A stretch of DNA of 64,000 bases from a virus (IMGVR_UViG_3300027819_000006), one strand, 5' to 3'; counted from the first letter of the stretch, positions 5,670-56,500 are shown. Made by a program: numbers and translations. The notes: generated by a model not told the origin, from the sequence alone.

Positions 5670-6359
5670 TCAAAAATTACACTGACATCCTTTTAACATT
5701 AAAATGTCCATATCGCAAATACAGCCCCAAACTCTATTTGTTTTCTCTAATTGAGCTTTTATGGATTCTTTAACATTTGTAACTTCATATCGAGAAAAAA
5801 TTTTATCTGATAATTCTGCATGAGGTATAAATGGAATATAGATACTTAATATATGTCTATTATCTAATCTCTTACAAATAGAATCTATAAACTTAGTTTC
5901 ATCATCTATTTCAAAATCTAACATTCTTGTTTCAGCTGTTATTGCTGTAGCTATTACTCTATCTTTACAAGTTTCTTTGTCATACATAAATAAAACTCTA
6001 GATGGCAAATTCATACTTTCATAACCATATATTATATTTTTATTTGTCATAATTTGAAGATGATAAACTAATTTTATTATATGACTATACAGTTTATTTG
6101 TGTAATCTGAAGTAAAACATCGATTTAATTGATCATAATCAGCCAAGAATCTTTCTTGATTTCTTAATAGAGTTATAGCTGTGCATTTAGAATATTCTGT
6201 CAGTTTTTCATATTCTTCACAATTTAAAACATTTTTCAATTTAATTTTAAGTTCTTCTATAGCATTCTCATTCAAACTATAACATTCTATATCAACTATC
6301 ATATGCTGTATTTTTGAATATATGCATTTCAACCAAGGATGTATTATATCTATATTCAT
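5670..6359 (-). CDS. Hypothetical protein with C-terminal CxC-x9-CxC motif
   Basis: Ends CICDMDILMLKGCQCNF. Confidence 0.6.
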   Translation of the reverse strand: MNIDIIHPWLKCIYSKIQHMIVDIECYSLNENAIEELKIKLKNVLNCEEYEKLTEYSKCTAITLLRNQERFLADYDQLNRCFTSDYTNKLYSHIIKLVYHLQIMTNKNIIYGYESMNLPSRVLFMYDKETCKDRVIATAITAETRMLDFEIDDETKFIDSICKRLDNRHILSIYIPFIPHAELSDKIFSRYEVTNVKESIKAQLEKTNRVWGCICDMDILMLKGCQCNF

Positions 6360-6362
6360 TTT

Positions 6363-7148
6363 CTATTTAACAAATTGTTCTAAAATTTGTCCTTTCGTTA
6401 TGTTATATTGTTTTAGCAATTGCTTTTTATATTCCATATTATGCGTGTGCAGTAAAGAAATTTCAGGTGTCCACTCTAGCCGGGGTAATTCTTTGCGCTG
6501 CATGTCGTGCCAATAATATTCTAATAGATGTCGATTTATTTCTATATTAAACTCTTCATCATTTAGCATTGTGAAATTTATGATTCTGTCTCTAAGTGTA
6601 TATAGAATATATTCTTCTGTATTTTCAAATCCTAAAGATGTTGGTGCGTATTTATCAATTAGCTTTTGCTGTCTTAATCGAAAATCACAAACTTTAAATT
6701 GAAAAGGTAATATTCTGTGCAAAAATTTTCTTCTAAACATCATACAATCTGGTGCTACCAATTCATTGCAATCTATTCCTGCTGAGAATTGCTTACCAGA
6801 ATCTATAAAATTTTGAACAGCTTTTACAAATCCTTGTTCTGTTAAAAAATGCACATCAAAATTATGTATAACTACTGTATCTCTGTAGCCAGCATTAGCA
6901 TAAGACAGCCCTTCGTTTATTTCTGAAAGTGCTCCTGTAGCAGGATTTTTGTCAATCGGCATAGAAATAAATGCATTCTCAAATACTCCTGAGCAAATCT
7001 TTGTAAGATCTCCGTTGTAAACTGTTACATGTTGCAGATCTTTGTTGAAAGAATAGTTGCTAATTATATCAATTCCAGTATAATATTCAAATACTTTGTT
7101 GACAGATCCAATTCTGATCAAAATTATATTTTTAGGATCAAACATCAT
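6363..7148 (-). CDS. Hypothetical protein, possibly GT-A-like glycosyltransferase
   Basis: Weak: GLSYA...VVIHNFDVHF resembles a DxD region; located in the glycosylation cluster. Confidence 0.3.
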   Translation of the reverse strand: MMFDPKNIILIRIGSVNKVFEYYTGIDIISNYSFNKDLQHVTVYNGDLTKICSGVFENAFISMPIDKNPATGALSEINEGLSYANAGYRDTVVIHNFDVHFLTEQGFVKAVQNFIDSGKQFSAGIDCNELVAPDCMMFRRKFLHRILPFQFKVCDFRLRQQKLIDKYAPTSLGFENTEEYILYTLRDRIINFTMLNDEEFNIEINRHLLEYYWHDMQRKELPRLEWTPEISLLHTHNMEYKKQLLKQYNITKGQILEQFVK

Positions 7149-7383
7149 AATCTATAGCAATCATTTCACTTTGTTTAGTATTATATACATATTGCAACTT
7201 TCCAGATTTATATGAAGCAAAAATAACATCCAATCTTCCATACTCTATCAAATGACTTTCAGTAGCTGTATATGGATAGCTTTTTAGATCTGATAATCCA
7301 AGCTTATACTTGAATGTATTGAAATCATTCACTTCTTCATATTTCATTTTTACTGTTGTCATTTTAGCAACCCTTTATTTAAA

Positions 7384-7620
7384 TTATGGAACTATAATAC
7401 TACTTGTCATCTGTCTGTGCATTGCTTCATATATGAGTTCTGGTATCTGCAAAGTTCTACAATGCGAACATACAATTGTAGGAATGGGTCCTAAATTGAA
7501 ACCCATTAGTTTCTCATCATCTTTCTGTTCATAACCACAAGCTACACATATAAAATGATCAGATGCTTCATTTTCTTGTTTTTCTTCCGAGCCAGGGAAT
7601 TGTAATATATTGTCAGCCAT
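7384..7620 (-). CDS. Small zinc-ribbon protein
   Basis: CVAC...CSHC pairs in 78 aa. Confidence 0.45.
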   Translation of the reverse strand: MADNILQFPGSEEKQENEASDHFICVACGYEQKDDEKLMGFNLGPIPTIVCSHCRTLQIPELIYEAMHRQMTSSIIVP

Positions 7621-8191
7621 TTTCCTCCACTATTTTTTCAATGATGCCGTGTATCAAACAAATGCTTGATATCTCATGAACTCCATATCCACTTTCTTTA
7701 AACCATATAATATCGTCAAAACACTTTTTAGATTCTTCATATGTATTTTGAAATCCAAATATTCCAATTGTTTTGCACTTAACAGATTTTGCATATGCAG
7801 AAGCATGTAAAATATTCTTAGACTTACCACTAGAAGATATAGATATTAGTAAATCATTTTCATTTAGATTAAATCTTTTTAGCCATTCAATATAAATATT
7901 TTCAAAAGTGTAATCATTGCCAAAACAAGTTAACATAGACCCAGAAGACATTACATGAGCTTCTATATTACATCTTTTAAATAGATCATTTGCTATATGA
8001 TCGCAGTTGCTCCAAGATCCCCCATTTCCTGCAAGGAATATTCTTTTACTTGATTTTATAGCATTATATAAATTATATACAGAGTTAATATTTGTAGAAC
8101 ATACAAATTTATTTACTTCACACGAGAACTTTGCTACAAAATCATTTACTTCATAAACATCTTTCAGCTGTTCTTCCATACTACTTTGCAA
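7613..8191 (-). CDS. gmhA: Phosphoheptose (sedoheptulose-7-P) isomerase, SIS domain
   Basis: LAGNGGS..CDH, GNDY, SISSSGKSKNI..A, VHE motifs. Confidence 0.85.
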   Translation of the reverse strand: MQSSMEEQLKDVYEVNDFVAKFSCEVNKFVCSTNINSVYNLYNAIKSSKRIFLAGNGGSWSNCDHIANDLFKRCNIEAHVMSSGSMLTCFGNDYTFENIYIEWLKRFNLNENDLLISISSSGKSKNILHASAYAKSVKCKTIGIFGFQNTYEESKKCFDDIIWFKESGYGVHEISSICLIHGIIEKIVEENG

Positions 8192-9021
8192 CTCTTGTAG
8201 TTACCTTCACTTCTTTTCTGTTCAACACTCTGTCTTTAACTTCTGATACTACTTGAGCAAGATGTGCTTCAACATGTTTTACATATTCAGCAACTACTAG
8301 TTCTTCTGCTTTAGCCTTGCTTTCTACATCTTCAAAAACATGTGTAAATGCAGGAACTACATGCAGTGCATCTTCTACTAGCTCTACTACTTTAACTTTT
8401 ACTTTCATTTTGTTTCTCCATAAATTTAGTTGTGATTTCTTGTGTCATAGTTCTATATTCGTAAAAATCTGACTCTGGTCTTTTGATAATTTGCAATAAT
8501 GGTTGCTCTATACTATTAGATATTAAACAGTAGTGCACAAAAGTATATGGATCTATAAAGTGTTTACCAGTTTTAAGATCACTTCTTCCATCGAACTGTT
8601 TAAAATCTTTTACTATAGCTGTAATTACTTTTTTAGGAAATGCTTTTATCATTTAGTTAGTATGTTGTCCTGTTTGATTTCTGCTAATTTTGTTTCTTTA
8701 AACTGTTCTACATTGATATTTTTTTTAAATAGCTCATATTTAAATCGAACCATATCTTCTATGCCTATCATAGCTTCTTTTACAGCATCTACTTTATGCA
8801 ATGCTTCTAAAGTTAATAGAGCTTCAGCATCTAAATTTGCATCTTTTAATAGATTCACACATTTGCTCCTATTTAGTTAGAATATCTTGTTTAATTTCTG
8901 ATATTAGTTTACTTATTTCTTGTAGCTTTAATAAAGTTCTTTCATTTTTTAAACGTAATTTTTCATTTTCTTCATTTAAATTGAAATTATCTTGTTGTAG
9001 CTGCTTTAAATCTTTTTTCAT

Positions 9022-10020: not shown

Positions 10021-10032
10021 GTTTTAAAATCC

Positions 10033-11728: not shown

Positions 11729-11930
11729 CTATTTCATCTCTTTCAGTCCAAGACATTTCAAAATATAGATCTTCCATTTTTGATAGCAATTCTTTTTCTT
11801 TTTCAGTATATTCAATTGTGTGTTCTTCTAATGCATTTTGCAAATTTTCTAGTTGTAGTCTTAATTCTCTGTATGTGTCTAATTGTAGCATTTCTCAGTT
11901 CTCCAATTGTTGCTATTAATTTATAATAAA

Positions 11931-12971
11931 TTATGACAAGCTTTTATAAATATCTAATTGTTTTTTGCCCATATCTAGTGCATAGCACATATTTTTCCAA
12001 AGTGATTTTGCATTATTACTAAAATATTCATAATCTACTTTTTTATCTGCAAATGCTTTCATTATTCTTGAATATTCATCTACATCTCCATATTTTGTCA
12101 CGAATCCTGAGTTCTGTATGCATTCTATATGTCCTTGATAATGTAATCCGTAATGACTTATTATTGGTTTACCTCTTGATTGAGCATTCCATATTGCTGA
12201 AGAATTACATTCGCCATCTTTTCTTGAGTGAGTCATCACATTTAGAGTGTTATAAAATCTATTTATTCTGTCTGTATCAATAGATTTATTTATCAATCTA
12301 TAATTTTTAATATTTAGCTTTTCAAATGATTCTTTAGCATATTCTTCTACTCCCATTATAACAAAACAAGTTTTGTCAGTTTCTATTTTAGAGTAAGCTA
12401 ATAAATTTAGATTATCAAAAGTCTGAGGATCTGGTCGACCAATATGACCGAAGACAAAAGTATCTTCGTCTATATTCAGTTCTTTTCTTAAATTTTCATT
12501 ATTCAAAGGATCTTCTACTGGATTTCTTACAACTAAATGATTTGAATCATTTTGCTTATTTACAGCATTTCTAATCCAGCTTGATACATATATTACTTTT
12601 GATATATCTATTGTCTCATCTTGATTTCCAAAAACTGAAGTAGATATAAAATGTTTGCAATGCTGTTTAATTTCTTTTATAAATGGAAACTCTGGAATGC
12701 CCGCAGAATATCTATGAGTAATAAAAGGCTTAATCTCTCTCGTTATATAAACTAGCTCTGGTCTTGATCCATAAGCAAATACTCTATCTTTACCCAATAT
12801 TTTTGAAAATTGTTCAAATCTTAAACTGTCTTTATCTGCAGGATAAAATACTGTATGAATAAAATTGCTCTCTTTATCAATAATATTCATGTGTTTACAT
12901 AGCAGTAATAACATCTCTTGTGTCCCGCCAATTCCTAAGTCTCCTATATGATGAAGTACTGTTTTTTTCAT
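11931..12971 (-). CDS. Glycosyltransferase, GT-B (GT4-like)
   Basis: LGIGGTQ, VVRNPV, FVFGHIGR, GE...AIWNAQSRGKPII. Confidence 0.8.
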   Translation of the reverse strand: MKKTVLHHIGDLGIGGTQEMLLLLCKHMNIIDKESNFIHTVFYPADKDSLRFEQFSKILGKDRVFAYGSRPELVYITREIKPFITHRYSAGIPEFPFIKEIKQHCKHFISTSVFGNQDETIDISKVIYVSSWIRNAVNKQNDSNHLVVRNPVEDPLNNENLRKELNIDEDTFVFGHIGRPDPQTFDNLNLLAYSKIETDKTCFVIMGVEEYAKESFEKLNIKNYRLINKSIDTDRINRFYNTLNVMTHSRKDGECNSSAIWNAQSRGKPIISHYGLHYQGHIECIQNSGFVTKYGDVDEYSRIMKAFADKKVDYEYFSNNAKSLWKNMCYALDMGKKQLDIYKSLS

Positions 12972-14020
12972 ACTTCATCCTTATAGATATTTTCTTTTAT
13001 TTTTATAGCTCTTTCTTTATAATATTCATCTAAATCTCTATCTAGATATTCGCCAAAAACTATATGATATATTTGAGATTGCTCAGGATATAGTTCGACA
13101 AATTTAGATATTTTTTCTCTCGATTTATTTAAAGTATATTCGCATTTCACTTCCTCTATTCTGATCAAATTATTATTTTCATCATAAATATGAAAATCAG
13201 GGATATATTTGCATGTCAATAAATCATATTTTATTTCTTCATAAGTCCATATTATATTTTTAGAATCTAAGAATATTGCTCGTTTAACTTCATATGAAGA
13301 TCTCATATTATATCCATTGTATGGATATCTGCTTTTTACTTTTATAGTGTTTTTTCTACATTTTTCACATATTCCATTTTTATTACCTTTATGAATAGGT
13401 GCAGGGCACAATGAACAAAAAACACCATGATTCTTAACTTTATCTTTAACATTAGAGCATTCTAATATTATATTTGGATAATCTTTTCTTATATGAATAG
13501 CATTCATATATTTATGTTTTGTCATCATATGTCTAGTCAGTTGCTGTTTCACTTTACTGCATATTGGACATATTAAATAATCAACGAATTCCTGTCCTGT
13601 CAGCAACTGTTTTATAATATCTAATCTTATATTTTTATTATGTTCAACTATATGCTGTTTGCTTTTTGATGCAGAGCAACTTCTGCATAAATCGCTTCTG
13701 CCAGTAGTTTCTCCACCACAATTAGAGCAGTAATATTTTTTAAGTTTTCTGCAATTATTACATTCTTCGAAACCATTAGATATAGTCCTTTTTGGAAGTA
13801 CTTTTCCACATGATATGCAGCTAATATCTTTTTTAAAATCTTCATCTCTGCATTCGACACACATATCAATATTTTTTAATACAGTATGATAATGAAGTAT
13901 TTTATTGCATGATATGCAACGAGCTCTGCTATTCAATCTACAATTTTTGCATATTTTTAAACCAGCTGCTATTGTATGATGATGAAGATTTTTATTGCAT
14001 TTTTCACATTTCTTATTCAT
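12968..14020 (-). CDS. Free-standing endonuclease: three Cys-rich repeats + zinc finger + PD-(D/E)xK domain
   Basis: Three ~27-aa CxxC...CxxCR repeats; C-terminal YIPDFHIYDENNNLIRIEEVK, nearly identical to 4099..5247. Confidence 0.75.
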   Translation of the reverse strand: MNKKCEKCNKNLHHHTIAAGLKICKNCRLNSRARCISCNKILHYHTVLKNIDMCVECRDEDFKKDISCISCGKVLPKRTISNGFEECNNCRKLKKYYCSNCGGETTGRSDLCRSCSASKSKQHIVEHNKNIRLDIIKQLLTGQEFVDYLICPICSKVKQQLTRHMMTKHKYMNAIHIRKDYPNIILECSNVKDKVKNHGVFCSLCPAPIHKGNKNGICEKCRKNTIKVKSRYPYNGYNMRSSYEVKRAIFLDSKNIIWTYEEIKYDLLTCKYIPDFHIYDENNNLIRIEEVKCEYTLNKSREKISKFVELYPEQSQIYHIVFGEYLDRDLDEYYKERAIKIKENIYKDEV

Positions 14021-16087: not shown

Positions 16088-17695
16088 TCATTCATCTTTA
16101 TAAATCCTTTCTTTAACTTTTTTAGCTGTTAATTCATATTGAAGCTCTTCTCTTTGCAAATCTCTTTTCTGTTTATCTATTGATTTTCTATGGATTATAT
16201 GATTGCCGATCAATATAAATTCTTTTTTAGCTCCAATAACTTGCTCATGCGTTTCACCACGAAACTGACATACGTTTTTATTAAATAATCTTTTTTGAGC
16301 GTCATGTTCATAATTTATCCATTTAAATCCAGACATATTCCACCCTCTAGATTGACAAAATTCTAATAATTCCTGATCAGATAGTCCATCTAAAATATTC
16401 TTTCTTGGAATAGAAATACAATCTATATTTTTATTTTGCATCTCCCATATGCACCAGTTTATCTGATTTAGAAAATGATGTTCATATGTTTCATCTGAAT
16501 CTATAAATAGAATATAATTATTTTTAGCATTCTCTAAAGATGCATTTTTTTGTATTTCAAAGTTATCTTTCCACTCTCTTTCTATAACTTTTACTTTATC
16601 TACTCCAACTTTATTTTGAAAGCTATATAGAATATTTTTAGTTCCGTCAGAAGATTTGCTATCTATTACAGATACAAATTCATTATTTATATATAGCTCT
16701 ATATTATCTAAAGTTCTTTTAATAGTTTCTTTGTCACTTCTTGCAATGTTGCAAATACTATATTTTACATCTGGCTTTTTATGATGTTCATACAAATACA
16801 TAAACTTGTCAAACACATCTTGAACTTCTGCATTTACATTAGTTTCTACATATAAATTATTGTAAATTTCTGAACTTCTCTGTGGCAAGTGCACTGGCAA
16901 GAAAAACGTGTTTTTTGTATAGATGCATACAGTTGGTATTCTATTTCTTGCTGCAACTTCCCACAGCCAACTATTGGTTGCTATACATCCTTGAGCGTAT
17001 TCTTGAATTAGTGCTATAGTTTCTTCTACAGACAATCCCATAGCATCAAAATATTCTACTTCTTTATTCAATGCTTCTTTTAATCCATAATCTTCATCGT
17101 TTATTCCTACTAGCATTGGAGTAAATTCATTTTCATATAACTTTCTACAAATAGAAACCCATTTTTCTTTTGATAAAAATCTACCCTGCTGTAAATCAAC
17201 ATCAAATCCCTCAGGAGAACCACTAGATGTGATAGGATTAATAATGACATATTTATATTTTAATCGTAATTTTAAATTTTTACATCTATTTGGTTCATCC
17301 AAATATTTTCTTAGTCTTATATGAGGGTAATATTCAGTTTTATATTTATAGAAATCTTCCATATCATAATTTGAAATGAAAGAGGGAGTTTCATTGTTAA
17401 AAATTTCAGCACAGAAACATGCATCAATGAGCATGTCGCCATCTTTCAATATAGATTTTTTCAACCATTCTTTGAAATATTCTACTTGTGAATGATTTGT
17501 GAAATTTTTTATTACAGAAGATTTATATCCTTCTCTTGTAGCTTGTTCTTTACATAAAATAGGACTTTTACCCCAGCCGCCAAAATAGAAAACTATCTCA
17601 TGATCTGAATGTTTTTCTTTTATAGATTTACATCTAGTCAAGAAAGATAGAAAATCTCCATAGCCTGCCATATGTAAAATCACTATTTTATTCAT
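16088..17695 (-). CDS. Fused glycosyltransferase: GT9 (heptosyltransferase-like) + GT2
   Basis: N-terminal GYGD...H.I, EKW, LEETI-like/A..CIATNS; C-terminal D..SSDGT, F..QKN.SL, LFIDSDE, GETHE. Confidence 0.7.
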   Translation of the reverse strand: MNKIVILHMAGYGDFLSFLTRCKSIKEKHSDHEIVFYFGGWGKSPILCKEQATREGYKSSVIKNFTNHSQVEYFKEWLKKSILKDGDMLIDACFCAEIFNNETPSFISNYDMEDFYKYKTEYYPHIRLRKYLDEPNRCKNLKLRLKYKYVIINPITSSGSPEGFDVDLQQGRFLSKEKWVSICRKLYENEFTPMLVGINDEDYGLKEALNKEVEYFDAMGLSVEETIALIQEYAQGCIATNSWLWEVAARNRIPTVCIYTKNTFFLPVHLPQRSSEIYNNLYVETNVNAEVQDVFDKFMYLYEHHKKPDVKYSICNIARSDKETIKRTLDNIELYINNEFVSVIDSKSSDGTKNILYSFQNKVGVDKVKVIEREWKDNFEIQKNASLENAKNNYILFIDSDETYEHHFLNQINWCIWEMQNKNIDCISIPRKNILDGLSDQELLEFCQSRGWNMSGFKWINYEHDAQKRLFNKNVCQFRGETHEQVIGAKKEFILIGNHIIHRKSIDKQKRDLQREELQYELTAKKVKERIYKDE

Positions 17696-18705
17696 TTATT
17701 TAACTCTATTGTCAAGAAATTATCTGCATTTCTAATATTATAATTTAAATGAGACATTATCCATCTATCTAAACAAATATTAGTATCTTCTATTTCTTTT
17801 TCTGCATATACTATCGTAGGATTTTGCATGCAAAGAGTAAAATCTTTATCTAAGTAGTGCTTTCCAGTATGAATAAATAAAAGTTTATTTTTAAGTATGT
17901 CTGTAACACCAGTATAAGAATATATGTTGCATTTTCTATGATTTAATGATATAGCTCCATATCTTTGAATACTATTATAATTAGAGTATTTATCTGGTCT
18001 AAAACTTTTTCTTTGCTCTATAGAAGCCAATACTTTATGTGAACATAATAGATTTATAGTATCTAAACTTTTATTTTCTGACCACTTACTATACAAATGA
18101 TCTATGTTGTCGATTGAATTGACATGTAATTTATATGAGCAAGCTATAATTCTATCTATGCAAGAAGATTCTATATCATAAAATGAATTTTCAGCGATTA
18201 TAGTAGAAAATTCAACTTCTGCATCTAATCTATTATATGATTTGAAATTTTTACTAACATCATCTTTAGATATCCATCTCTGTCTTAACTTTCTAGTCTG
18301 AATAGAAATCTCTCTATCTATTATTGAGACCTTGTTACATTTACAACCATTCAAACTTAAATCTCTTATACTGCAGCTACAGCTATTTTTATAATATATT
18401 GGAATCGTTCTATTCGTATTAGTACATATCCGTATGTTAAACAAGTTATGACAAAAACTTCTATACATTCTAACCCATATTGACAATGCTAAAGATTTGA
18501 AATATTCATCAGCATAATCAGATTTATTCAGAACACTAAAATTATCTAATATTCTCTTTATTGCAATTTTATGATATAATGATTTATTGAAACCCCTTAA
18601 AAATGACTGCTCTATTAGACTTATCCATTTTTCTGGTTTGTTATTATATTCATCTAATAGCTTATTTTCATAATCTTCTATATTAATTTTGCTCTGCATT
18701 GACAT
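17692..18705 (-). CDS. Hypothetical protein with internal CxC-x9-CxC motif
   Basis: CSCSIRDLSLNGCKC at 18337-18381. Confidence 0.55.
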   Translation of the reverse strand: MSMQSKINIEDYENKLLDEYNNKPEKWISLIEQSFLRGFNKSLYHKIAIKRILDNFSVLNKSDYADEYFKSLALSIWVRMYRSFCHNLFNIRICTNTNRTIPIYYKNSCSCSIRDLSLNGCKCNKVSIIDREISIQTRKLRQRWISKDDVSKNFKSYNRLDAEVEFSTIIAENSFYDIESSCIDRIIACSYKLHVNSIDNIDHLYSKWSENKSLDTINLLCSHKVLASIEQRKSFRPDKYSNYNSIQRYGAISLNHRKCNIYSYTGVTDILKNKLLFIHTGKHYLDKDFTLCMQNPTIVYAEKEIEDTNICLDRWIMSHLNYNIRNADNFLTIELNK

Positions 18706-19067
18706 CCAATAGACATTAGAATATTCAAATCACAGCTACATTTCATATCATCAAACATTTTAACTACTTCTACATAATCTTCATCTTTTTCAAAATCTAG
18801 AGCATCATCTTCATCAAATATAGCATACTCATAATAGTCTTCTAACATTATATTATATGTAGTCTTATTCATAGCATATATTATTATTTTTGATATTTGA
18901 TCATTATCAAACTCAGCATTCAAACAATAAGTAATGTCCCAACTATTCAAACTAGCTGCATCAAAAATAGATTCTATACTAGAATAGATGTCATTTTTAT
19001 CAGAAGTACTAGTTAATTCTGTGTCTTTATAGTAGAGCTGTAGAATATCTGTAATATCTAATTTCAT
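18678..19067 (-). CDS. Acidic hypothetical protein with C-terminal CxC-x9-CxC motif
   Basis: Ends CSCDLNILMSIGCQCRAKLI. Confidence 0.6.
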   Translation of the reverse strand: MKLDITDILQLYYKDTELTSTSDKNDIYSSIESIFDAASLNSWDITYCLNAEFDNDQISKIIIYAMNKTTYNIMLEDYYEYAIFDEDDALDFEKDEDYVEVVKMFDDMKCSCDLNILMSIGCQCRAKLI

Positions 19068-19857: not shown

Positions 19858-20433
19858 CTAAATTTGATTTTTGCATTGGCAACCTTTTAATATTAAAGTG
19901 TCTATGTCACAAGTGCATCTATTAATTAAGGGTATTTTTATATGTAATTTATGCATTCTATCAGACCTTACTATAGCGTCACATTCTTCTATCAGTTTTG
20001 CAGATTTATTTTTACCATTTTTATACAAGTGCATTGCATCTTCAGATGGAGAAATTACAAACAATGGAGCAAAAATTTTTTGAATTTCATTGAGATTATT
20101 TTTATCATAATTACTTTTTTTGAATTTTGCTATATCTTGAGAAGTTTCTATGTTAGTTTTTAATCTTCTTTCTATCATAGGTACTCCGATAAAATCATCT
20201 ATACAAACATTTAACATTATATCATTCATCATATTATCTTCAGAAGTAATTTTCCATATGTTTATATTTGATTGACATTCAAAACAATCACAGCTATGAA
20301 TTTTATATTCTGGCATTACATGCTGACTATAATATATGGCAGCATACTGATTAATTACAGAATATATAAATCCTTTTACAAATGATTTAGATTCACTTTG
20401 AAAATGTTTATTAACATACTCTTCTAATGTCAT
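19858..20433 (-). CDS. Hypothetical protein with C-terminal CxC-x9-CxC motif
   Basis: Ends CTCDIDTLILKGCQCKNQI. Confidence 0.6.
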   Translation of the reverse strand: MTLEEYVNKHFQSESKSFVKGFIYSVINQYAAIYYSQHVMPEYKIHSCDCFECQSNINIWKITSEDNMMNDIMLNVCIDDFIGVPMIERRLKTNIETSQDIAKFKKSNYDKNNLNEIQKIFAPLFVISPSEDAMHLYKNGKNKSAKLIEECDAIVRSDRMHKLHIKIPLINRCTCDIDTLILKGCQCKNQI

Positions 20434-21479
20434 TTCAATCCTCTTTTCAATAAGATACTATCAACACATTCATCAATTATTTCTATTACAGTTTTCTCTT
20501 GTTTTCCAAAAAAACTATGCAATAATGATGTATCACCAAGTCTTCTTTTTACCAAATTTGGATCATGTTCTTCATATATAATTTTGCTTCTAGTGCAGTC
20601 AATTCCTTTGCTTGTAAGCAACTGCTCTATTATTTCTGTTAATTGTAATACAGATGTTTCTTTACCAGAACAAGCATTTATAAAGCCCTCAAAATAGTCT
20701 GGATTCTTCTTACAAATACCTGATTGTGCAGCTAAAATGTTATATCTAGCTACATCTTCAGCATGTATAATATCTAGTGTCTGCTGTCCATTTCCATAGA
20801 TAGTTATATCTTTTCCATCAATGAATGCATTTATAAATTTAGGTACAATCTGCACATAGATATTTTTATCTGACTGTCTTGGACTAGTTATATTAAAAGG
20901 TCTAAAAGATATAAACTTTAGTCCATCATTATCTGAATATGATTTTGCTATATGCTCTACAGATATTTTATTAGCTCCATATAGCAATGAATTATTTCTG
21001 AAATGATGTCTTTCATCTGTAGGAAAATAATCTGAATTTCCATACACAGAAGCAGATGAAGCAAATATTACTTTCTCTACTCCATATCTCAAAGACAACT
21101 CAAACATGTTGACAGAACCCATTACGCCACATTCTATTGCTTCGTATCTTGCTGATCTACTATCAAGAGTTAAAAGCGACGCTTGATGAAATACATAATT
21201 TGGTCTGAAAACATCAAATATGAAATCCATCTTTCTATAATTCGTTATATCATCTCTATAAAAATGTATTCTATTATCATTTTCAGAAGCATATTCATAG
21301 GCCCTGTCTAGATTAGACAGATTGCCATTATACATATTATCAATTACGACAATATTAGAACCTTTGTAGTATTTAGCTAATAACTCTACTATATAACTTC
21401 CAACATTTCCCGCGCCGCCAGAGATTACAGATGTAGTGCAATCTTTCTGCTCTATCTGTTTGATGTTACTATTCATCAA
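20430..21479 (-). CDS. NAD-dependent nucleotide-sugar epimerase/dehydratase
   Basis: ISGGAGNVGS, FASSASVYG, YGANK, GNGQQTLD.IH.EDVA. Confidence 0.9.
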   Translation of the reverse strand: MMNSNIKQIEQKDCTTSVISGGAGNVGSYIVELLAKYYKGSNIVVIDNMYNGNLSNLDRAYEYASENDNRIHFYRDDITNYRKMDFIFDVFRPNYVFHQASLLTLDSRSARYEAIECGVMGSVNMFELSLRYGVEKVIFASSASVYGNSDYFPTDERHHFRNNSLLYGANKISVEHIAKSYSDNDGLKFISFRPFNITSPRQSDKNIYVQIVPKFINAFIDGKDITIYGNGQQTLDIIHAEDVARYNILAAQSGICKKNPDYFEGFINACSGKETSVLQLTEIIEQLLTSKGIDCTRSKIIYEEHDPNLVKRRLGDTSLLHSFFGKQEKTVIEIIDECVDSILLKRGLK

Positions 21480-21764
21480 CCTCCACTATCGTCGTCTTCA
21501 TCATCTGATTCTTCATCTTCAGAATCAAGATCTGAATCTTTGTCTTTATAGCCATGATAAACATGTTCAGCATCTTCAAATCCCCATTCTAACATTGTCA
21601 ACATGTTCTCTAATTCTTCTTTTACTATTTTAAGTTTACTTCTGTAATACTTGACCGAGCCTTCAGATCTTCTCAAATCTATCATGTCTAAAATGTCTGA
21701 TGATTCTTCTGACAATACATTTAGAGCATCTTCTAATCTATTGCTGATTCTCACTGAGGCCATT

Positions 21765-22111
21765 TTAATTTCTCCTGTTTTGTTTGCATTGACAGCCTTG
21801 TAGCATTAATGTATTCATGTCGCATAAACATTTTCTGCTATAATCAGATTCAAAATGAAAAAATGTATCAGTTGGTTTTTTCATGGGTTGAGTAACTGCA
21901 AATTCTTCTATTATATAGCTAGACTATGTTTTTATCAGCTCTTTCTAAGTATTCATTAAATATTTCTATTGGAGCATCTTCTATGGATGGAAAAGTAACA
22001 GACATCTCTATATCGTTGTTTACATAGAGCATTCTGTTCCAATCTCTTTTAAAATTTCTGTTGCTTAATTCTTTACAGCGCTAATATTTCAATTTCAGAT
22101 TGCTCAGTCAT
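21765..22111 (-). pseudogene. Frameshifted ORFan ending in the CxC-x9-CxC motif (not in ORF track)
   Basis: Manual translation: terminal frame reads ...SRKCLCDMNTLMLQGCQCKQNRRN* (motif 21786-21830); the upstream part is in other frames from ATG at 22111. Confidence 0.6.
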
Positions 22112-22499
22112 TTTTCAGCTCTTTCATTCTATCTGAATAGCACCCACATCCATATCTAGTTAAATTATCTACACTACAAATACATTCTGTAAATTCAAAG
22201 AAATCATCTAATATAATTGATTCAAGTGTTACAGTTATTTCTGGTATTTCATTAGGTTCTGTTTTGCTTGTTTCATATTTAAGATAGAAATATAGAGGTT
22301 TGAAATTAACTTCTTGGCATTTATCTCTTAAAGTTGTTATCTGTCCAACAAAATTTTTCGGTGCTGGCATTTCATATGTACCATTATTTTGTTTGAACTG
22401 TAATTCTTCTTTTGATATTTCTTTTCTGAGAAATTGACTCAGTAATGTATCTGATTGATCTTTATAAGATTTAATTGCTCTTGCTTTTGATACTGTCAT
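22104..22499 (-). CDS. Hypothetical protein with near-terminal CxC-x9-CxC motif
   Basis: CICSVDNLTRYGCGC at 22140-22184. Confidence 0.55.
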   Translation of the reverse strand: MTVSKARAIKSYKDQSDTLLSQFLRKEISKEELQFKQNNGTYEMPAPKNFVGQITTLRDKCQEVNFKPLYFYLKYETSKTEPNEIPEITVTLESIILDDFFEFTECICSVDNLTRYGCGCYSDRMKELKND

Positions 22500-23410: not shown

Positions 23411-23908
23411 TCATAGTTCATTCCTTCTGTATGATCCACAAGTACATCCCTGCAATATCAATGTATCAATGTTGCATGTGCACTTTTTAATTATTGATTG
23501 CATGTTTTCTGCAGTTATTGGTCCTAATTTGTATTCTGCTACTATGCTTTTTGCTACATTGCAACAAATAGATTCATGAAGATTTTCTAAATCATATAGT
23601 CTATTTTTTAGAATGTAATCATAATGTTCATTAATTTTCATAGTTGTAATATCATTATTGAACAATTTATCTGATTTTGTTAAAGAAGCTTCATCTACTG
23701 TTTCTTTAAATAGAATTATATTATCAATATTTTCATGAATATCTACTTTTACTCTATCAAGAGCAACTTTTTGGGTCCTGTAAGTGAAACATAATTCTAA
23801 ATAAAATTTAATATCTTCTATACAAGCATAGCATAAATCATATTCTTTATAATTTTCATCAATTTCAAAATATTTAGAATGATCTACTGTTTTATTAGCA
23901 CATCTCAT
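23411..23908 (-). CDS. Hypothetical protein with C-terminal CxC-x9-CxC motif
   Basis: Ends CTCNIDTLILQGCTCGSYRRNEL. Confidence 0.6.
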   Translation of the reverse strand: MRCANKTVDHSKYFEIDENYKEYDLCYACIEDIKFYLELCFTYRTQKVALDRVKVDIHENIDNIILFKETVDEASLTKSDKLFNNDITTMKINEHYDYILKNRLYDLENLHESICCNVAKSIVAEYKLGPITAENMQSIIKKCTCNIDTLILQGCTCGSYRRNEL

Positions 23909-24819: not shown

Positions 24820-25400
24820 TACTTAGTTTCCCTCTTCCAATCCCAACCCATTATATCGACAGAAGCTCTATATTCATCAGATCCGTTATATTTGTTATTT
24901 ATAAAGTAGAGTAAAATAGCTTCTTCATTTGTAAAATTAAAAGAGCCATGTTGTAATCCTCTTCTCACTATTACAGGGCCGTTATTAGTGTTCCTATCAG
25001 ACAAATAAAACCATTTACATACTGGTCCATTTATAAAATCAGAATATAAATCTTTATTCTGTTTAAAATAATCTGAATTCATAAAATCAAACCACTGATT
25101 AACTAATTTTAGTCGTTGAATTTTTGAATAATCAGATGTTTTTTTAATGAAATCATCAAGAGTTTTATTATCATATCTCTCTCTATATAAATCATAAACT
25201 GCTTGACTATAATTTGGAACATTACAAATTCCAATTTTTAGAGAACCTTTGAGCACAATTTGATAATCATCTTGAGCATAATGCATGTGGAAAGCTGCTA
25301 GTGTACCTGGATAAACTATACTGCAATTTATGTCTCCCTCTTTCATAGAAGAAAATATGTCACAGTATCTCTGAGCTCTATCATCTCCACCTGCTCGCAT
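24819..25400 (-). CDS. RmlC-like cupin (dTDP-4-dehydrorhamnose 3,5-epimerase-like) with an internal insertion
   Basis: S..YPG...AFHMH..QDD..VLKG.LKI and V.V.RGL.HG..N; adjacent to rmlD. Confidence 0.65.
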   Translation of the reverse strand: MRAGGDDRAQRYCDIFSSMKEGDINCSIVYPGTLAAFHMHYAQDDYQIVLKGSLKIGICNVPNYSQAVYDLYRERYDNKTLDDFIKKTSDYSKIQRLKLVNQWFDFMNSDYFKQNKDLYSDFINGPVCKWFYLSDRNTNNGPVIVRRGLQHGSFNFTNEEAILLYFINNKYNGSDEYRASVDIMGWDWKRETK

Positions 25401-25639
25401 TAGATCAATTCCTTTCTACAAATACACCCTTTTAATGTCAAAGTATCTATATCACAGACACATTCTATATTATTAGTAGCAATTTTATTAGCAAATCTTT
25501 CAAATTTAAAGTTATTCCTCATCACACTTCTCATGCCATTTTCTATATACCACTCAGAATAATTTTTTACTGATCTTATTTCATAGCCACTATTTTTAAG
25601 ATATCTCTGAATATCTTCTGGTAATTTACTTTCATTCAT
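25400..25639 (-). CDS. Small protein with C-terminal CxC-x9-CxC motif
   Basis: Ends CVCDIDTLTLKGCICRKELI. Confidence 0.6.
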   Translation of the reverse strand: MNESKLPEDIQRYLKNSGYEIRSVKNYSEWYIENGMRSVMRNNFKFERFANKIATNNIECVCDIDTLTLKGCICRKELI

Positions 25640-26757: not shown

Positions 26758-27084
26758 TTATACAAAAGTCATTTCAAATTCTTTTTTGCATATACAACCC
26801 TGCAATATCAGAGTTTGCATGTCGCATGTACATATGTCATTAATTGTACTTATTCCATTATTTTTATCTTTGCAATTGTGCAAACATTCAAAGATATATT
26901 TTATGTTATCTTCTGTATATTTGTGAGTGTCAGGAAAATGTATAGCATCTCTATAACAAAATTCACATGTCAATCTCAGCTTTTCTTTATAGTTGTCCCA
27001 AGTGTCTAATTTTGAATTATATGTGAAACCCAAATGTTTTAAAAATTTTTGTATAGTAGCTATATCTTTATTCATTTCCAGCAT
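26758..27084 (-). CDS. Hypothetical protein with C-terminal CxC-x9-CxC motif
   Basis: Ends CTCDMQTLILQGCICKKEFEMTFV. Confidence 0.6.
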   Translation of the reverse strand: MLEMNKDIATIQKFLKHLGFTYNSKLDTWDNYKEKLRLTCEFCYRDAIHFPDTHKYTEDNIKYIFECLHNCKDKNNGISTINDICTCDMQTLILQGCICKKEFEMTFV

Positions 27085-27109: not shown

Positions 27110-27973
27110 TTAGCAAATTATACGCCAAACTATATCTATTTCGTCTTCCCAGATGCGAATTAGTCTATAACCATTATCTTCAGCTATTCTATTTTTTCTA
27201 TTATCATTATCAATCTTTCCCTTTTGCCATTCATTTACAGGTCCATTAACATATATTCTAGGATTACAGTGATAATAGTTACCATCAACTTCTATTAACA
27301 TGTTATATTCTGGAATATAAAAATCAAAATAAGATTTATTTAAATAAAACTGACTCTTATACTCTATATTTAAACTATCTAAAATCTTAGCTATTTTTAT
27401 TTCAGGTTTACTTATTCTATATTTAAGACATTTTTCATTTCTATTTTTATTTCTTGCAATCCACATTTCTTCTGCTTTTTCAAGACCATGTTTTTCTATC
27501 CATATATCTTTAAGTGATTTACCATACATGGGATTTTTGCTTCCAGAAACATCTGCATGATTTTCTGACATACTAACAGTTGATTTTTTTATTCTTTCAT
27601 CAGTTTCTTTAGTTAAGCCTTTATTCCATGTTATTATAGATCCTTGTTCAAGCCTTTCTATTCGTGTTTCAGATATTTTATTACATGATTCGATAGAATG
27701 TTTTCTACCATACATGGGATTATTTTCACCCTTTGCTAAACCTTTTTCTATTCTAGTTTTAGATATTTTAGCTTTAGTTTCTTCAGATGCTTTTCTCCCT
27801 TTCAACTTTCCTGAATTTTTACATTTATGACATTTTCTATTCAGCCCAGTAACTTCGTTCAAGCAATTTGTCGCAGCACATTTATATTTGATATATTCTA
27901 TGCATTCTTGACATATTCCAGATTTATTTCTATTGCCTAATTCATTAATACCACAAATATAGCATAATAGCAT
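27110..27973 (-). CDS. Free-standing endonuclease: Cys-rich + NUMOD3-like repeats + Vsr/DUF559-like domain
   Basis: SEETKAKIS...GENNPMYG repeats; SKPE...FDF...LIEVDGNYYH...D..KN..A...GY.LIRIWE. Confidence 0.8.
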   Translation of the reverse strand: MLLCYICGINELGNRNKSGICQECIEYIKYKCAATNCLNEVTGLNRKCHKCKNSGKLKGRKASEETKAKISKTRIEKGLAKGENNPMYGRKHSIESCNKISETRIERLEQGSIITWNKGLTKETDERIKKSTVSMSENHADVSGSKNPMYGKSLKDIWIEKHGLEKAEEMWIARNKNRNEKCLKYRISKPEIKIAKILDSLNIEYKSQFYLNKSYFDFYIPEYNMLIEVDGNYYHCNPRIYVNGPVNEWQKGKIDNDNRKNRIAEDNGYRLIRIWEDEIDIVWRIIC

Positions 27974-47454: not shown

Positions 47455-47457
47455 TTA

Positions 47458-51381: not shown

Positions 51382-51408
51382 TTATATTTTCTCATTAAAA
51401 ATGAATTA

Positions 51409-52692: not shown

Positions 52693-52773
52693 TCTGTTGC
52701 TTTATACAGATAGCTCATGATTATCAAAACTATCATTATATGAACGAAATCTGAAATGTATATCAATCATATT

Positions 52774-54162
52774 CTATTGCACAGAGAAAAACCATTTCTG
52801 TTTATTGGCATAGATATATGTAGATCCTTTTAATGACAGTTTTAACAAAATATAGTATTTCTTATTTGCATATAAGTCCTGACAGTTAAATTGTAGGAAA
52901 TTTCCAACCTTATCGAATGATAAAGTGTCAGCTGGAATCTCCGTCGAATCTGTATCTAGCTCATGTAGCTCCCAGGTGCTATTTGTGGCAATAAAATTCT
53001 GTTGCGCTGTTGTAGCTCCAGTTGCAGCTACCAATGATACAGAGTTGTCTTTTATGTTTATTCTAATTCTTGGTTGTGAATTCTTGTCATAAACATTGCT
53101 CAAATTCTGCAATATAACTCTATAAGAAGAAGTCTGATAATTATCAAATCCAGAAGCTGGATTTATTGTTGTAAATGAAAATGTATAATTTGCTGTAGGA
53201 GATGCAGAGATATACCAATTGTCTTTGAATGAAGTAGCAGCAAATGCATTTGAAGTCAGGGGCATTGTTCCAATATTACACTGATAAATACCTTTAGACC
53301 ATCTTTTAGCTGTCAAACTTGTTTTAATTGCAGAAACAGCATTGTTTGAAGATGAAGTTCCAGATAGAGTAATGTTTCCAGGGAAATCTCCAGATGCTAC
53401 AGCATTCAAATCTGTTAGCTGCCCATTGACTATATTATAGAAAAATAGATTAGCTGTTGAATTAAATGCAACAAAATTTCTGAAATCTTGTATTGCTCCA
53501 GGCCACTCTAGAGAAATAAATGGCCTATTCGTAGTGTTAGTCTGACGAGAATAAAATTTCTTTGTATAGTAACTGAATGCTGATAAAGAGCCTGCTTTAT
53601 TCTCTTCTGTATTAGACATTCTAATCATTAAGCCCTGATTGGCTGTTTGAGAGTTTGTCCATGCCTTAAAAATATTTGTAATGTTGATTCGGAGATTTTC
53701 TTCTCCCTGAGGGAAATATTGAGTAGCAGAATTTGCATCAATTACATAATCTCCACCAGAAGCATTCCAAGCAGTAGAATTTGTAGCAGACACAGCATTT
53801 GCAAAACCAGTTTGAGACATAGAATTGTTTTCTAACCCAGAAGATTCAGACCAATTACTAGTTACTGGATATACATTTAAATTGAAATTAGAAGCTAATG
53901 GATCTCCATGTTTACAGTTGAAAAGATTTAAATATGCAGACACAGTAGTGTCAGTTATTATGTCGGGCAAATCTCTATTTATAATATTAGCTGTGCATGA
54001 AGATATATTGAAAGATATTAATATTCTTGCCCAATTTTTAATGTTAGTATTATTATTGAACAATGTCCAAGTTTCTAATATGGGAGATGCTCCAAAATTA
54101 GAAGTTATGGATTTATCTGTTATAAAAGTGTCTTTATCTGACCAAGATCTAAACACGCTCAT
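52774..54162 (-). CDS. Virion structural protein (DNRLRE/disaggregatase-like domain)
   Basis: DTFI...NFG....LE, R.LI.F, A.LNL, W..SGGD, N.GL.I, K.FYSR.T....P. Confidence 0.6.
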   Translation of the reverse strand: MSVFRSWSDKDTFITDKSITSNFGASPILETWTLFNNNTNIKNWARILISFNISSCTANIINRDLPDIITDTTVSAYLNLFNCKHGDPLASNFNLNVYPVTSNWSESSGLENNSMSQTGFANAVSATNSTAWNASGGDYVIDANSATQYFPQGEENLRINITNIFKAWTNSQTANQGLMIRMSNTEENKAGSLSAFSYYTKKFYSRQTNTTNRPFISLEWPGAIQDFRNFVAFNSTANLFFYNIVNGQLTDLNAVASGDFPGNITLSGTSSSNNAVSAIKTSLTAKRWSKGIYQCNIGTMPLTSNAFAATSFKDNWYISASPTANYTFSFTTINPASGFDNYQTSSYRVILQNLSNVYDKNSQPRIRINIKDNSVSLVAATGATTAQQNFIATNSTWELHELDTDSTEIPADTLSFDKVGNFLQFNCQDLYANKKYYILLKLSLKGSTYIYANKQKWFFSVQ

Positions 54163-55358
54163 TTATTATCTCCATAATTCATAACAAATTCTATGTTATT
54201 GTTTGAGCAATAAATCTTAGCAGCTTCTATTTTTAAATTTAACTTTTCCTGATCAAATATTCTGCCTTTTGTTTCTTCTAATACTATTTTATTTTTATAT
54301 TGTATTAAAAAATCAGGTATATATCGTCTCAATCTGTCATATTCATATTTTATAACTATATGATGTTTTTTTGTCCATTTTATAACATTCATATCTTTAT
54401 CTAATTCTTTCATTCTTTGCAGCTCAAGTCCACTAGCATAAAATTCTTCTATTCCAGTTTTTATAGAAGTATAATACCCTCTTTTAAAATATTTTACTCC
54501 ATAATTTTCGCATCTATTTGCTGCAGCTATACTCATTTTTTGTTTTGTTTCTTCAGATATTATAAAATGTCTGCCAGTACTAATTTTAGACTGATGTTCA
54601 CATTTGACTTTCCACATCTCTTCAGCTTTTTCAATTCCATATTTATCTATCCAAACAGATTTTACAGACACTCTATACATTGGATTACCAGAACCAGAAA
54701 TCTTTTCAGAAATGTTTGCATTTCTTTCTGCCCACATTTCTTTGGCTATTTCAATACCGTATTCTTTTATCCAAATATCTTTTACTGAAACTCCATACAT
54801 TGGATTCAAATCACCTACTCTATTTGACCCAAACATAGGATTGTTTTCTCCTGACATATTCTTTGAGCCAACTATTTTAAATTTATCGCTTAATATATCA
54901 TTAACTGTTTTGCTATCTGGAAATTGTTTTCTATATTTTTCAGAACTAATATTATGTTTGGATTTTAAATGTACACACAAAGCTTCAAAATATCTGTGAC
55001 ATATTAAACATTCTATTTTATTTTCATCTGCATTAAAAGAATTGTCAATATAGATTTGTTTTTTTGATTTTGGTCTTTTATTTCGTATTTCTTGAATTTT
55101 TTCTTCGCTAAACATTTCTTTATATTTTTTATCTTTACTCCAAATAACTATCTCTTTATTTAAATGTCTTCTTTTTAAAGTTTCAGAAATGCGTCTTTTT
55201 CTACATACTAAACATCTTCTGTTTATATCTTTTGTAATATTAGAACAATCTTTTTCTATACAATAGAAAGTTTCATTGTCTCTATGTTTAGAGCAAGTAG
55301 TATATCCTTTGTTTATAGTTTTTTCTCTTAATTTAGCTGCACAGTATTTACAATTCAA
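54159..55358 (-). CDS. Free-standing endonuclease: Cys-rich + C2H2/MucR-like + NUMOD-like + TnsA-like PD-(D/E)xK domain
   Basis: CLIC...L..HL...H, GENNPMFG repeats, YASGLE...YIPDFLI...LEETKG. Confidence 0.78.
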   Translation of the reverse strand: MNCKYCAAKLREKTINKGYTTCSKHRDNETFYCIEKDCSNITKDINRRCLVCRKRRISETLKRRHLNKEIVIWSKDKKYKEMFSEEKIQEIRNKRPKSKKQIYIDNSFNADENKIECLICHRYFEALCVHLKSKHNISSEKYRKQFPDSKTVNDILSDKFKIVGSKNMSGENNPMFGSNRVGDLNPMYGVSVKDIWIKEYGIEIAKEMWAERNANISEKISGSGNPMYRVSVKSVWIDKYGIEKAEEMWKVKCEHQSKISTGRHFIISEETKQKMSIAAANRCENYGVKYFKRGYYTSIKTGIEEFYASGLELQRMKELDKDMNVIKWTKKHHIVIKYEYDRLRRYIPDFLIQYKNKIVLEETKGRIFDQEKLNLKIEAAKIYCSNNNIEFVMNYGDNK

Positions 55359-55398
55359 AACTATACCTCCATTTATCTGCCCATGATCTAAATATCAT
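55348..55398 (-). pseudogene. Short 5' duplicate of the start of 52774..54162
   Basis: MIFRSWADK(WRYSFEL*) vs MSVFRSWSDK; tttagatcatgggcagataaa vs tttagatcttggtcagataaa (19/21 nt). Confidence 0.7.
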
Positions 55399-55517
55399 TT
55401 TTAATTCTCTTCAATATGAAATCATGTTTATGTCTAATTCTATCGATAATATATCCATAATTTAAAATATATTAATTAATTTCCTATAAAGATCTTCTTT
55501 TTCTTCTTCATTAGCAG

Positions 55518-55814
55518 TTATGTGTATATATTTTCTTTTTCTAAAAAATCTCTAACTGCATTTATAACATTAGAAAATACTATAAATTCATGACCAGATT
55601 TAGAAATCAGTGGATCGTAATATACTGTATTATCATTTTTTGTTTTTATACCAAAATAAACATCCCAATAAGTATTTCCTATATTTTTAGAAACTACATG
55701 TTTTGATATGCTTGTTCTATACTTTAATTTATCTACTGTAAAATAATATTCTATTCTATCAACAGATCTTCTTTTGGTAAATTTTTTAGTGTCAAACAAT
55801 TCTTTAAGCAGCAT
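55518..55814 (-). CDS. Small leader protein, shorter paralogue of 56497..56919
   Basis: F.VD...YR...W.V.F...G.EF.VFS.V..A...FL shared. Confidence 0.5.
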   Translation of the reverse strand: MLLKELFDTKKFTKRRSVDRIEYYFTVDKLKYRTSISKHVVSKNIGNTYWDVYFGIKTKNDNTVYYDPLISKSGHEFIVFSNVINAVRDFLEKENIYT

Positions 55815-55816
55815 CT

Positions 55817-56500
55817 CTAATTTCTCTTTTTAGGAATAGATCCACATTTGCAGCCATATAGAATCAAAGTACTCATATCGCATTCACAGTCATGAATCTT
55901 TTTAGTCTTACTATCTGGTACAGTATTTACAATCCATTCACTCTCATGATCATATTCTGGAGGATCACATGCATTATAATCTATATCTGCATCTTCTTCA
56001 AATATTTCACAGAAGAAATTACCAAGACATTCTCTATGATATAAGTCTTCTGTAAATAGATGAGAATAGCTAAGTTGTTTCATATCTTCTTGGTTTATTG
56101 AATATTTCTTATAGAAATTATCATTAACATTTACAAGCTCTAATAATATATCTCTATCTATGCCATGTGCAAAATTATAGTAATCTTTCTCTGTTCTCAT
56201 TTTCATAGGAGTAGTACAGTAATATCCATCTTCTAATATTGGAACTTTATTATCCATAAAATCAAATTCATCAAAATATATTTTATGATTGTCATACATA
56301 GTCCAGTCTAAGATGTAATCTTTATATGTTACACAATCGAAACTACCAGCATAATTATGACTGTCAACTATGTTAATCATGTTATTTTTATTATGTATTA
56401 CTGTCACTACATTGATACCAGCTGTAATATTTTTTATTACATCTTTGATCAATCTTGTAGTTTTACCAGATCTTCTACCAGATATTTCTAAATACATCAT
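55817..56500 (-). CDS. P-loop NTPase-like protein with C-terminal CxC-x9-CxC motif
   Basis: ISGRRSGKTT (Walker A), IYFDEFD (Walker B), ends CECDMSTLILYGCKCGSIPKKRN. Confidence 0.6.
   Translation of the reverse strand: MMYLEISGRRSGKTTRLIKDVIKNITAGINVVTVIHNKNNMINIVDSHNYAGSFDCVTYKDYILDWTMYDNHKIYFDEFDFMDNKVPILEDGYYCTTPMKMRTEKDYYNFAHGIDRDILLELVNVNDNFYKKYSINQEDMKQLSYSHLFTEDLYHRECLGNFFCEIFEEDADIDYNACDPPEYDHESEWIVNTVPDSKTKKIHDCECDMSTLILYGCKCGSIPKKRN

Follow-up and report, generated by a model that had tools for sequence, protein, structure and literature searches.

Very small domains in which four cysteines form one site within about 15–30 residues include the CSL finger of Kti11/Dph3 (CxC...CxxC) and the C-terminal CxC...CxxC zinc centre of Hsp33. 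The SWIM domain (PF04434) is a zinc-chelating module used for interaction with proteins or DNA, and the CD4/CD8–Lck 'zinc clasp' docks one protein on another through an intermolecular Cys4 zinc site made of CxC and CxxC. In T4-type phages, clamp-binding C-terminal peptides of gp43, gp33 and gp55 dock unrelated proteins to a common partner. Here we describe a 15-residue motif, C-x-C-x4-L-x3-G-C-x-C, that is carried by ten open reading frames (ORFs), mostly as a C-terminal tail, in a stretch of uncultured phage DNA (IMGVR_UViG_3300027819_000006) whose full length of 64 kb, all of which was analysed, is called the window below. The tails form a family that has not been described before; as a probable small cysteine metal-binding module, the tail belongs to a known type of element and has an unusual use as a swappable, shared C-terminal tail.

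Compared with Kti11/Dph3 and Hsp33, on general knowledge of these proteins, the tail has in common the four cysteines including a CxC pair and, in the case of Hsp33, the C-terminal site; it differs in having two CxC pairs nine residues apart, no sequence similarity and no match in the PDB. Like SWIM, it is a small module that opens with Cys-x-Cys, has a second ligand pair nine residues on and leads into a helix. Unlike SWIM, which has His as its last ligand, it has a helix between the ligand pairs and lies almost always at the extreme C-terminus. Each chain of the zinc clasp supplies two cysteines, whereas each phage tail has all four ligands, and since one carrier protein, P0012, bears two modules in tandem, each appears to be an autonomous unit. 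The T4 peptides are linear and hydrophobic, without cysteines or metal, and the analogy with them is one of principle only.

The window has a guanine–cytosine (GC) content of 28–33%, and nearly all of its genes are on the (−) strand. A six-frame scan with the motif as a strict regular expression found exactly ten in-frame copies, all on the (−) strand and all within ORFs; every coordinate listed in a first-pass annotation of the sequence was recovered, with none extra. A hidden Markov model (HMM) built from 64 tails gave the ten sites 34.8–53 bits, with no other score in any of the six frames above 6.7 bits, and thus the window holds no degenerate extra copies. When the pattern was relaxed to CxC-x6–12-CxC, only two sites were added, one running across a stop codon and the other just past a stop in a non-coding frame. 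No strict match arose in 200 mononucleotide shuffles of the window, and a degenerate DNA version of the motif matched six times versus 0.00 expected from dinucleotide-preserving shuffles. Nine of the ten copies lie 2–11 residues before the stop codon, versus 1.6 expected if placement were uniform (p ~7e-7); the tenth is internal to a 337-residue ORF (17692–18705). The first-pass annotation had described the motif as usually a C-terminal tail and had raised the question of whether C-termini are enriched over chance, and they strongly are. With the motif masked, no pair among the ten carrier proteins was similar by all-against-all blastp at E ≤ 1e-3, which agrees with the earlier view of the carriers as otherwise dissimilar, and the P-loop NTPase reported among them is recognizable from the Walker A sequence GRRSGKTT in the carrier at 55817–56500. 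The earlier size range of 79–337 residues has to be corrected to 39–337 because the ORF holding the copy at 21786–21830 is only 39 residues long. Codons within the motif vary synonymously (TGT/TGC; TTA/TTG/CTA/CTG; GGA/GGT/GGC/GGG). RNAalifold found no common RNA structure over the motif copies, and an RNA-level explanation was rejected on this result together with the synonymous variation. The motif in the window is confirmed as real and conserved, and its occurrence is not random.

A profile of 13 tails was searched against 1.84 billion (1.84e9) representative proteins at E ≤ 1e-3. It returned 60 matches, 59 of them with the strict motif; eight were the window's own proteins, giving 51 clusters from other DNA, with proteins of 41–335 residues. 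Further carriers were added by DNA pattern scans and by reading of flanking DNA, for a total of 77 carriers of 39–335 residues (median 109; 74 tabulated). The pattern and HMM search beyond the window that the first-pass annotation had proposed thus places the tail in many other uncultured phage proteins. In 67 of the 77, no more than 14 residues separate the motif from the C-terminus, versus 13.3 expected (p ~1e-40); the chain ends within three residues of the motif in 28 of 74 carriers, and in nine the motif is internal or N-terminal. Among the DNA scans, a first pattern that demanded Leu at motif position 10 was too narrow and matched nothing in IMG/VR, and a second, drawn from the wider consensus, picked up five viral contigs there. 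In a metagenome pattern scan, 12 of 15 matches lay in a non-coding frame (ten copies of one conserved sequence and two of another) and were discarded. A word-indexed protein search with the tail alone returned only the query itself, the method being blind to so short a motif.

Across the 74 tabulated carriers, C1, C3, L8, G12, C13 and C15 are invariant. Position 4 is Asp, Ser or Asn in 71, position 5 is Ile or Met in 66, position 9 is Met in 56, and the residue after the motif is Gly in 51. The wider consensus reads (H)K-C-[TIS]-C-[DSN]-[IM]-x-x-L-M-x-x-G-C-[KQ]-C-G, after which comes either G-[KIEV]-stop or a short helix, x-[FIL]-x-R-E. The window phage has a variant with I/M-L at positions 9–10 and a basic tail, in which the following Gly is mostly missing. 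The ten residues upstream of it vary and are polar; position −1 is Lys in 40 of 74 carriers.

All carrier-bearing phages are uncultured, and their GC content ranges from 25 to 56%. LR756511.1 (595 kb) has four copies, IMG/VR genomes of 167, 373 and 390 kb have one each, and several contigs have more than one: L067 (five in 17.8 kb), L071 (three in 20 kb), L072 (three in 12 kb) and L022 (two). When two tails were compared with all GenBank phage records by tblastn, LR756511.1 alone was matched, so that no cultured phage is known to have the module. No copy of the motif was found in Microcystis phage Mel-JY01, the Flavobacterium immuto phage or LR756508.1, the nearest identifiable relatives of the window phage as judged by a baseplate protein. 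The single carriers of the 373- and 390-kb IMG/VR phages (L032 10084–10386; L034 5845–6204) have a long proline-rich region directly before the Cys knuckle. This region is probably extended, and the arrangement looks like a tether with an anchor.

Scans of the carriers and of 64 isolated tails against Pfam, PHROGs, NCBIfam and PADLOC found no family for the tail, and Pfam and PHROG matches for the carrier bodies were almost nil. The sole NCBIfam match was of one tail to lachnocin (E 1.1), and a PDB sequence search with the tail profile gave two chance fragments only (E ~1). An ESM Atlas feature search with one tail and two carriers gave no usable match, and no description of the motif was found in literature full text.

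AlphaFold2, run on the 64-tail alignment, gave a confident, compact 37-residue model of the tail alone, a prediction that the first-pass annotation had suggested. The mean predicted local distance difference test (pLDDT) score is 81 and rises to ~90 over the core. In this model an extended CxC is followed by a seven-residue helix (residues 17–23), which runs from just after motif position 4 to the invariant Gly, then by the GCxC turn and a second helix (residues 29–36). Asp, Ser and Asn are classical N-cap residues of helices, and the invariant Gly serves as a C-cap. A single hydrophobic face is made up of positions 5, 8 and 9; it would pack against a metal–thiolate centre on which the four sulphurs would converge. 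In the full-length model of one carrier, the 79-residue carrier H (25400–25639), the tail has a pLDDT of 92, linker residues 42–52 fall below 50, and the body is modest; carrier bodies are ORFans with low predicted order. The four cysteines, C1, C3, C13 and C15, are invariant in 74 of 74 carriers, within a compact unit that AlphaFold2 folds apart from the body. Given these four invariant cysteines and the confident model, the tail is likely to bind a metal, which would probably be zinc.

Comparison with a related contig from another sample (L067) allows the evolution of the tail to be followed. Lettering the ten window carriers A to J by position, the five tail-bearing ORFs of L067 are orthologues of I, H, F, D and C; the contig is syntenic with the sugar cluster of the window, with 71–85% DNA identity in conserved genes, and carriers G and B and the region of ORF E are cleanly absent from it. 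Among seven orthologue pairs, 9–13 of the 15 motif residues are kept, while body identity is 21–67% and indels reach 81 columns. The tail of the L067 ORF in the D slot is closer to H tails (84% of 45 nucleotides, third positions 73%) than to that of its positional orthologue (76% and 47%), and BLAST aligned it with the window H tail, at the end of a non-orthologous gene, over 68 nucleotides at 85% identity. These values, in which the closeness to H extends to third positions, point to an exchange of tails between non-orthologous genes. Three homologues of carrier J in other large phages (162–210 residues) have the NTPase body, with the acidic linker and tail missing, and carrier P0050 combines a PrkA domain with the tail. 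The tail swap, the tail-less J homologues and P0050 together make it very probable that the module is portable and has been added to pre-existing proteins.

Several broader claims of the first-pass annotation can be judged on this basis. Its proposal of protein-level selection is upheld by the greater conservation of the motif than of the bodies in orthologue pairs and by the synonymous codon variation. Its description of the motif as portable agrees with the J homologues that end before the linker, the lack of relationship among the carriers and the one tail swap. It recognized no named family, and none came to light in Pfam, NCBIfam, PHROGs, PADLOC or the PDB; a characterized domain explaining all copies, the outcome it had set against its own proposal, was looked for in the family libraries and none was found. 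In sum, the module is strongly constrained at the protein level, is predicted to fold alone and is almost always C-terminal on unrelated, fast-evolving accessory proteins. The sequence comparisons further indicate that it is gained and swapped as a unit and that it occurs in many uncultured large phages, often in several copies.

We propose that the tail is a self-contained module of ~20–30 residues with the 15-residue motif as its core. The CxC loop and the GCxC turn would flank the short helix, N-capped by Asp, Ser or Asn and closed by the invariant Gly, and the four cysteines would chelate one metal ion, probably zinc, to form a 'zinc knuckle' on a flexible linker at the C-terminal end. This knuckle would act as a common docking handle, bringing differing payload proteins to one shared partner, which could be a phage or host protein or a nucleic acid. 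For the joint reading, a portable Cys4 metal knuckle, probably with zinc, that serves as an interaction tag, we estimate a probability of roughly 55%. That the tail's job is specifically to dock diverse payloads to a shared partner is a tentative assignment, which we hold at somewhat less than even odds. A further step, in which the tail would be an addressing tag of huge phages, a metal-stapled handle sending a changing set of accessory proteins for host takeover or anti-defence to one hub, is doubtful. Candidate hubs would include the virion, with the proteins co-injected, a factory for replication or glycosylation, and a host machine, and to recruit a new payload it would be enough to recombine the tail onto it.

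Several observations weigh against this proposal. CxC pairs are less usual as zinc ligands than CxxC. Searches of the PDB (Foldseek and VIA-align wide), AFDB clusters and the ESM Atlas gave no usable match for the 37-residue model, which is too small for a fold search to be informative. The fold accounts for almost every conserved residue and leaves few conserved surface residues (Lys at −1, Lys or Gln at position 14), so that the module could simply stabilize or protect a C-terminus. Three near-complete phage genomes have a single carrier each, and a tag for a set of proteins is therefore not general. Finally, no gene is a constant neighbour of the carriers across phages, and no partner was found in the inspected loci.

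The nearest named pattern is SWIM, and the tail could be a divergent SWIM-type zinc finger (CxC-xn-CxH) with the last His changed to Cys, binding DNA or protein. The nine-residue ligand spacing is frequent among 26 canonical SWIM domains that we collected (e.g., CNCPAYSHGGPFCKH), some tails read CTCPSF..., resembling the CxCPxF signature, and SWIM, matched by three of 64 tails (lowest E 0.012), is the sole Pfam family with repeated matches. Small canonical SWIM proteins also occur in two huge phages that carry the Cys tail. We nevertheless consider this identity unlikely: hhalign of the 64-tail profile against the 26 domains gave a probability of 3.3% for a non-collinear alignment of ten columns, and the SWIM HMM scored no more than 7.1 bits on the tails. 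The fourth ligand is Cys in 74 of 74 carriers, whereas the collected SWIM domains all end in CxH, and nothing in the tail corresponds to the conserved beta strands located just before CxC in SWIM: here this region is variable, polar and predicted by AlphaFold2 at low confidence and without a strand. Membership of PF04434 was rejected, the tail lacking the CxH signature, the gathering score of 19.6 bits, the profile similarity and the preceding strands. None of the ten carriers matched the SWIM Pfam model at E ≤ 1, and on motif-bearing phage genomes the model matched other genes and not the carriers. The tail may work like SWIM without being a demonstrable member of it. SWIM-finger proteins of 90–140 residues (CxC-xn-CKH) are encoded at other loci, namely L040, L041 (LR756511.1) and L042 (IMG/VR G003).

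Among the other rivals, the four cysteines might bind iron or an iron–sulfur (Fe–S) cluster, in a rubredoxin-like or Kti11-like site or one shared between two tails, with carriers that are redox-active or clients of a phage IscA-type protein; CxC-containing Cys4 sites such as that of Kti11/Dph3 can hold iron, and LR756511.1, with its four copies, encodes an IscA/Fe-S_biosyn protein (PF01521, E 1e-15). This we find rather improbable, given that the IscA gene of LR756511.1 (at ~324 kb) is not near any carrier, that a homologue is missing from three motif-bearing genomes that are 91–98% complete, and that the tail spacing fits no known Fe–S signature and no such family was matched. Co-occurrence of IscA with carriers is not general, PF01521 being found in LR756511.1 only. 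Still less probable is that the tail is a substrate for cysteine modification, through radical-SAM thioether cross-linking, acylation or S-glycosylation by neighbouring glycosyltransferases. Such neighbours do exist, as eight of the ten window copies are interleaved with ADP-heptose/rhamnose-type sugar genes and glycosyltransferase genes, likewise in L067 and L072. However, carriers lie among unrelated genes in other phages (L022, L024, L071), neither the scanned window ORFs nor the Pfam lists of inspected flanks held a radical-SAM enzyme, of the kind encoded beside ranthipeptide- or sactipeptide-like substrates, or any other plausible Cys-modifying enzyme, and the compact, confidently predicted fold with its helix capping fits a structural metal site better than a linear substrate. 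The idea that the motif DNA itself is the functional element, a site where recombination or homing reshuffles the ends of genes and the peptide is incidental, is very improbable. It could draw on the single tail swap between non-orthologous genes, the clean presence or absence of G and B between relatives and a genome rich in homing-type nucleases, but the only invariant bases are those fixed by Cys, Leu and Gly codons, synonymous sites are free, the motif DNA of paralogues is 47–76% identical, and the same peptide is kept across phages of 25–56% GC. The recombination cassette spawning ORFans that the first-pass annotation had offered as an alternative is thus favoured, weakly, as a side effect, in view of the tail swap and the clean gene indels; as a DNA-level element it finds no support, since conservation of the DNA goes no further than the peptide requires. 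Lastly, the knuckle might have no partner and simply cap and stabilize the C-terminal end of small phage proteins with little structure, for instance as protection from host proteases that attack C-termini. The fold-forming role of almost every conserved position, the low predicted order of the ORFan bodies and the location of the module at the very C-terminus, often within three residues of the chain end, would suit such a cap, to which we assign low odds. It would leave unexplained both the tail of carrier J, a well-defined P-loop protein that reaches the tail through a long acidic linker, and the nine carriers with an internal or N-terminal module.

If the docking proposal and its extension to an addressing tag are true, the tail would be a protein-sorting signal of bacteriophages, so far in uncultured lineages only. 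Large and huge phages encode hundreds of small ORFans of obscure function, and the tail groups at least 77 otherwise unrelated proteins, ten of them in the window, which would then have a common partner or fate. A single 25-residue peptide could be used as a bait for that partner and, if it is an addressing signal, for cargo delivery. The tail also offers a view of how phage genes are built, with a 25-residue module joined through a linker to an existing NTPase, swapped between neighbours and kept while the rest of the protein diverges past recognition. A family model would improve the annotation of huge phages, the tail being missing from Pfam, NCBIfam, PHROGs and the PDB.

The ten carrier genes of the window are all on the (−) strand. 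Carrier A (5670–6359, 229 residues) has the motif CICDMDILMLKGCQC at 5679–5723, two residues before the stop, and its orthologue P0025, 65% identical, has kept the tail. Carrier B (17692–18705, 337 residues) is the one with an internal motif, CSCSIRDLSLNGCKC at 18337–18381, followed by 214 residues; its start codon lies inside the Gly-Cys codons of the motif of carrier C (17692–18740 for the two together). In L067, from which B is absent, the C orthologue abuts a GT2 gene. The part of B after the motif has only a weak Pfam match, to Gp23 (E 0.13). Carrier C (18678–19067, 129 residues) ends five residues after CSCDLNILMSIGCQC (18696–18740), and its L067 orthologue (127 residues) shares 13 of 15 motif residues and is 50% identical in the body. 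In carrier D (19858–20433, 191 residues) the motif CTCDIDTLILKGCQC at 19873–19917 is four residues before the stop; the positional orthologue P0026 (114 residues) has only the N-terminal 75 residues in common with it and bears an H-type tail.

ORF E (21765–21884, 39 residues) gave the top HMM score, 53 bits, with CLCDMNTLMLQGCQC at 21786–21830, six residues before the stop. It has no obvious ribosome-binding site and is one frame off an upstream 37-residue ORF (21919–22032), and it may be the 3' remnant of a frameshifted carrier of ~90 residues spanning 21765–22032. Its last codons hold the AGGAG ribosome-binding site of the next gene, and a relative contig (L007) has a tail-bearing ORF at the matching position. 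Carrier F (22104–22499, 131 residues) has CICSVDNLTRYGCGC at 22140–22184, 11 residues before the stop, and an L067 orthologue of 142 residues with 13 of 15 motif residues and 67% of the body identical. Carrier G (23411–23908, 165 residues), the other gene cleanly absent from L067, has CTCNIDTLILQGCTC at 23438–23482, eight residues before the stop. Carrier H, the gene modelled at full length above, has CVCDIDTLTLKGCIC at 25418–25462, five residues before the stop; its orthologue P0030 has 130 residues. Carrier I (26758–27084, 108 residues) carries CTCDMQTLILQGCIC at 26788–26832, nine residues before the stop, and its orthologue P0020 keeps 9 of 15 motif residues and is 30% identical in the body. 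Carrier J (55817–56500, 227 residues) consists of the P-loop NTPase body, the acidic linker and CECDMSTLILYGCKC at 55844–55888, eight residues before the stop.

The window is part of a ~272-kb contig found repeatedly in metagenome assemblies from groundwater, and nothing among 50,697 GenBank phage records matches it closely. Its T4-type baseplate wedge protein shares ~30% identity with the corresponding proteins of Microcystis phage Mel-JY01, Flavobacterium 'immuto' phages and LR756508.1, an uncultured phage of 484 kb. The source is therefore an uncultured jumbo myovirus. Outside the sugar clusters, carriers occur with nucleotide-metabolism genes (L022), beside PARG-like and GSP-synthase genes and PrkA (L024), and within a long series of very small early-type genes, one of which is Acb5-like (L071). 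DUF5662 (PF18907), which has the HD-type invariant pattern H..HD..H..HH..D, was assigned by Pfam at 2546–3046 (−) of the window, 8555–9058 of L067 and 11002–11469 of L032. Of seven motif-bearing genomes or contigs, six have it, and in two IMG/VR genomes it lies 0.4–0.7 kb downstream of the only carrier. Three phages with DUF5662 are without the motif, and 80 DUF5662 loci in IMG/VR (1.3 Mb) do not hold any copy; because most of its loci thus lack the motif, DUF5662 is only a weak candidate for the partner.

Other genes of the window, also on the (−) strand, include a eukaryotic-type topoisomerase IB catalytic core (PF01028, E 1.9e-16; 3110–4045), a TnpB/Cas12f-like gene (PF07282, E 3e-17; 510–1694) and four paralogous nuclease-like genes (4099–5247, 12968–14020, 27110–27973 and 54159–55358). 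In the nuclease-like genes the N-terminal region is long, rich in Cys and dotted with numerous CxxC pairs unrelated to the tail, and the copy at 27110–27973 was called as a NUMOD3 gene. A second, different shared-tail family was seen in contig L011 (SDBT01058569.1), where at least eight small ORFs between 447 and 5472, many with an N-terminal 'ATHY' motif, have the common C-terminus (I/L)-x-x-K-L-M-(E/D)-A-F and adjoin one Cys-tail carrier. The contig with the counterpart of ORF E, L007 (Ga0209048_10131945), has a high-GC part with overlapping long ORFs (1–700) followed by a low-GC phage segment (780–1884) that is syntenic with window 20430–21884, and it looks chimeric.

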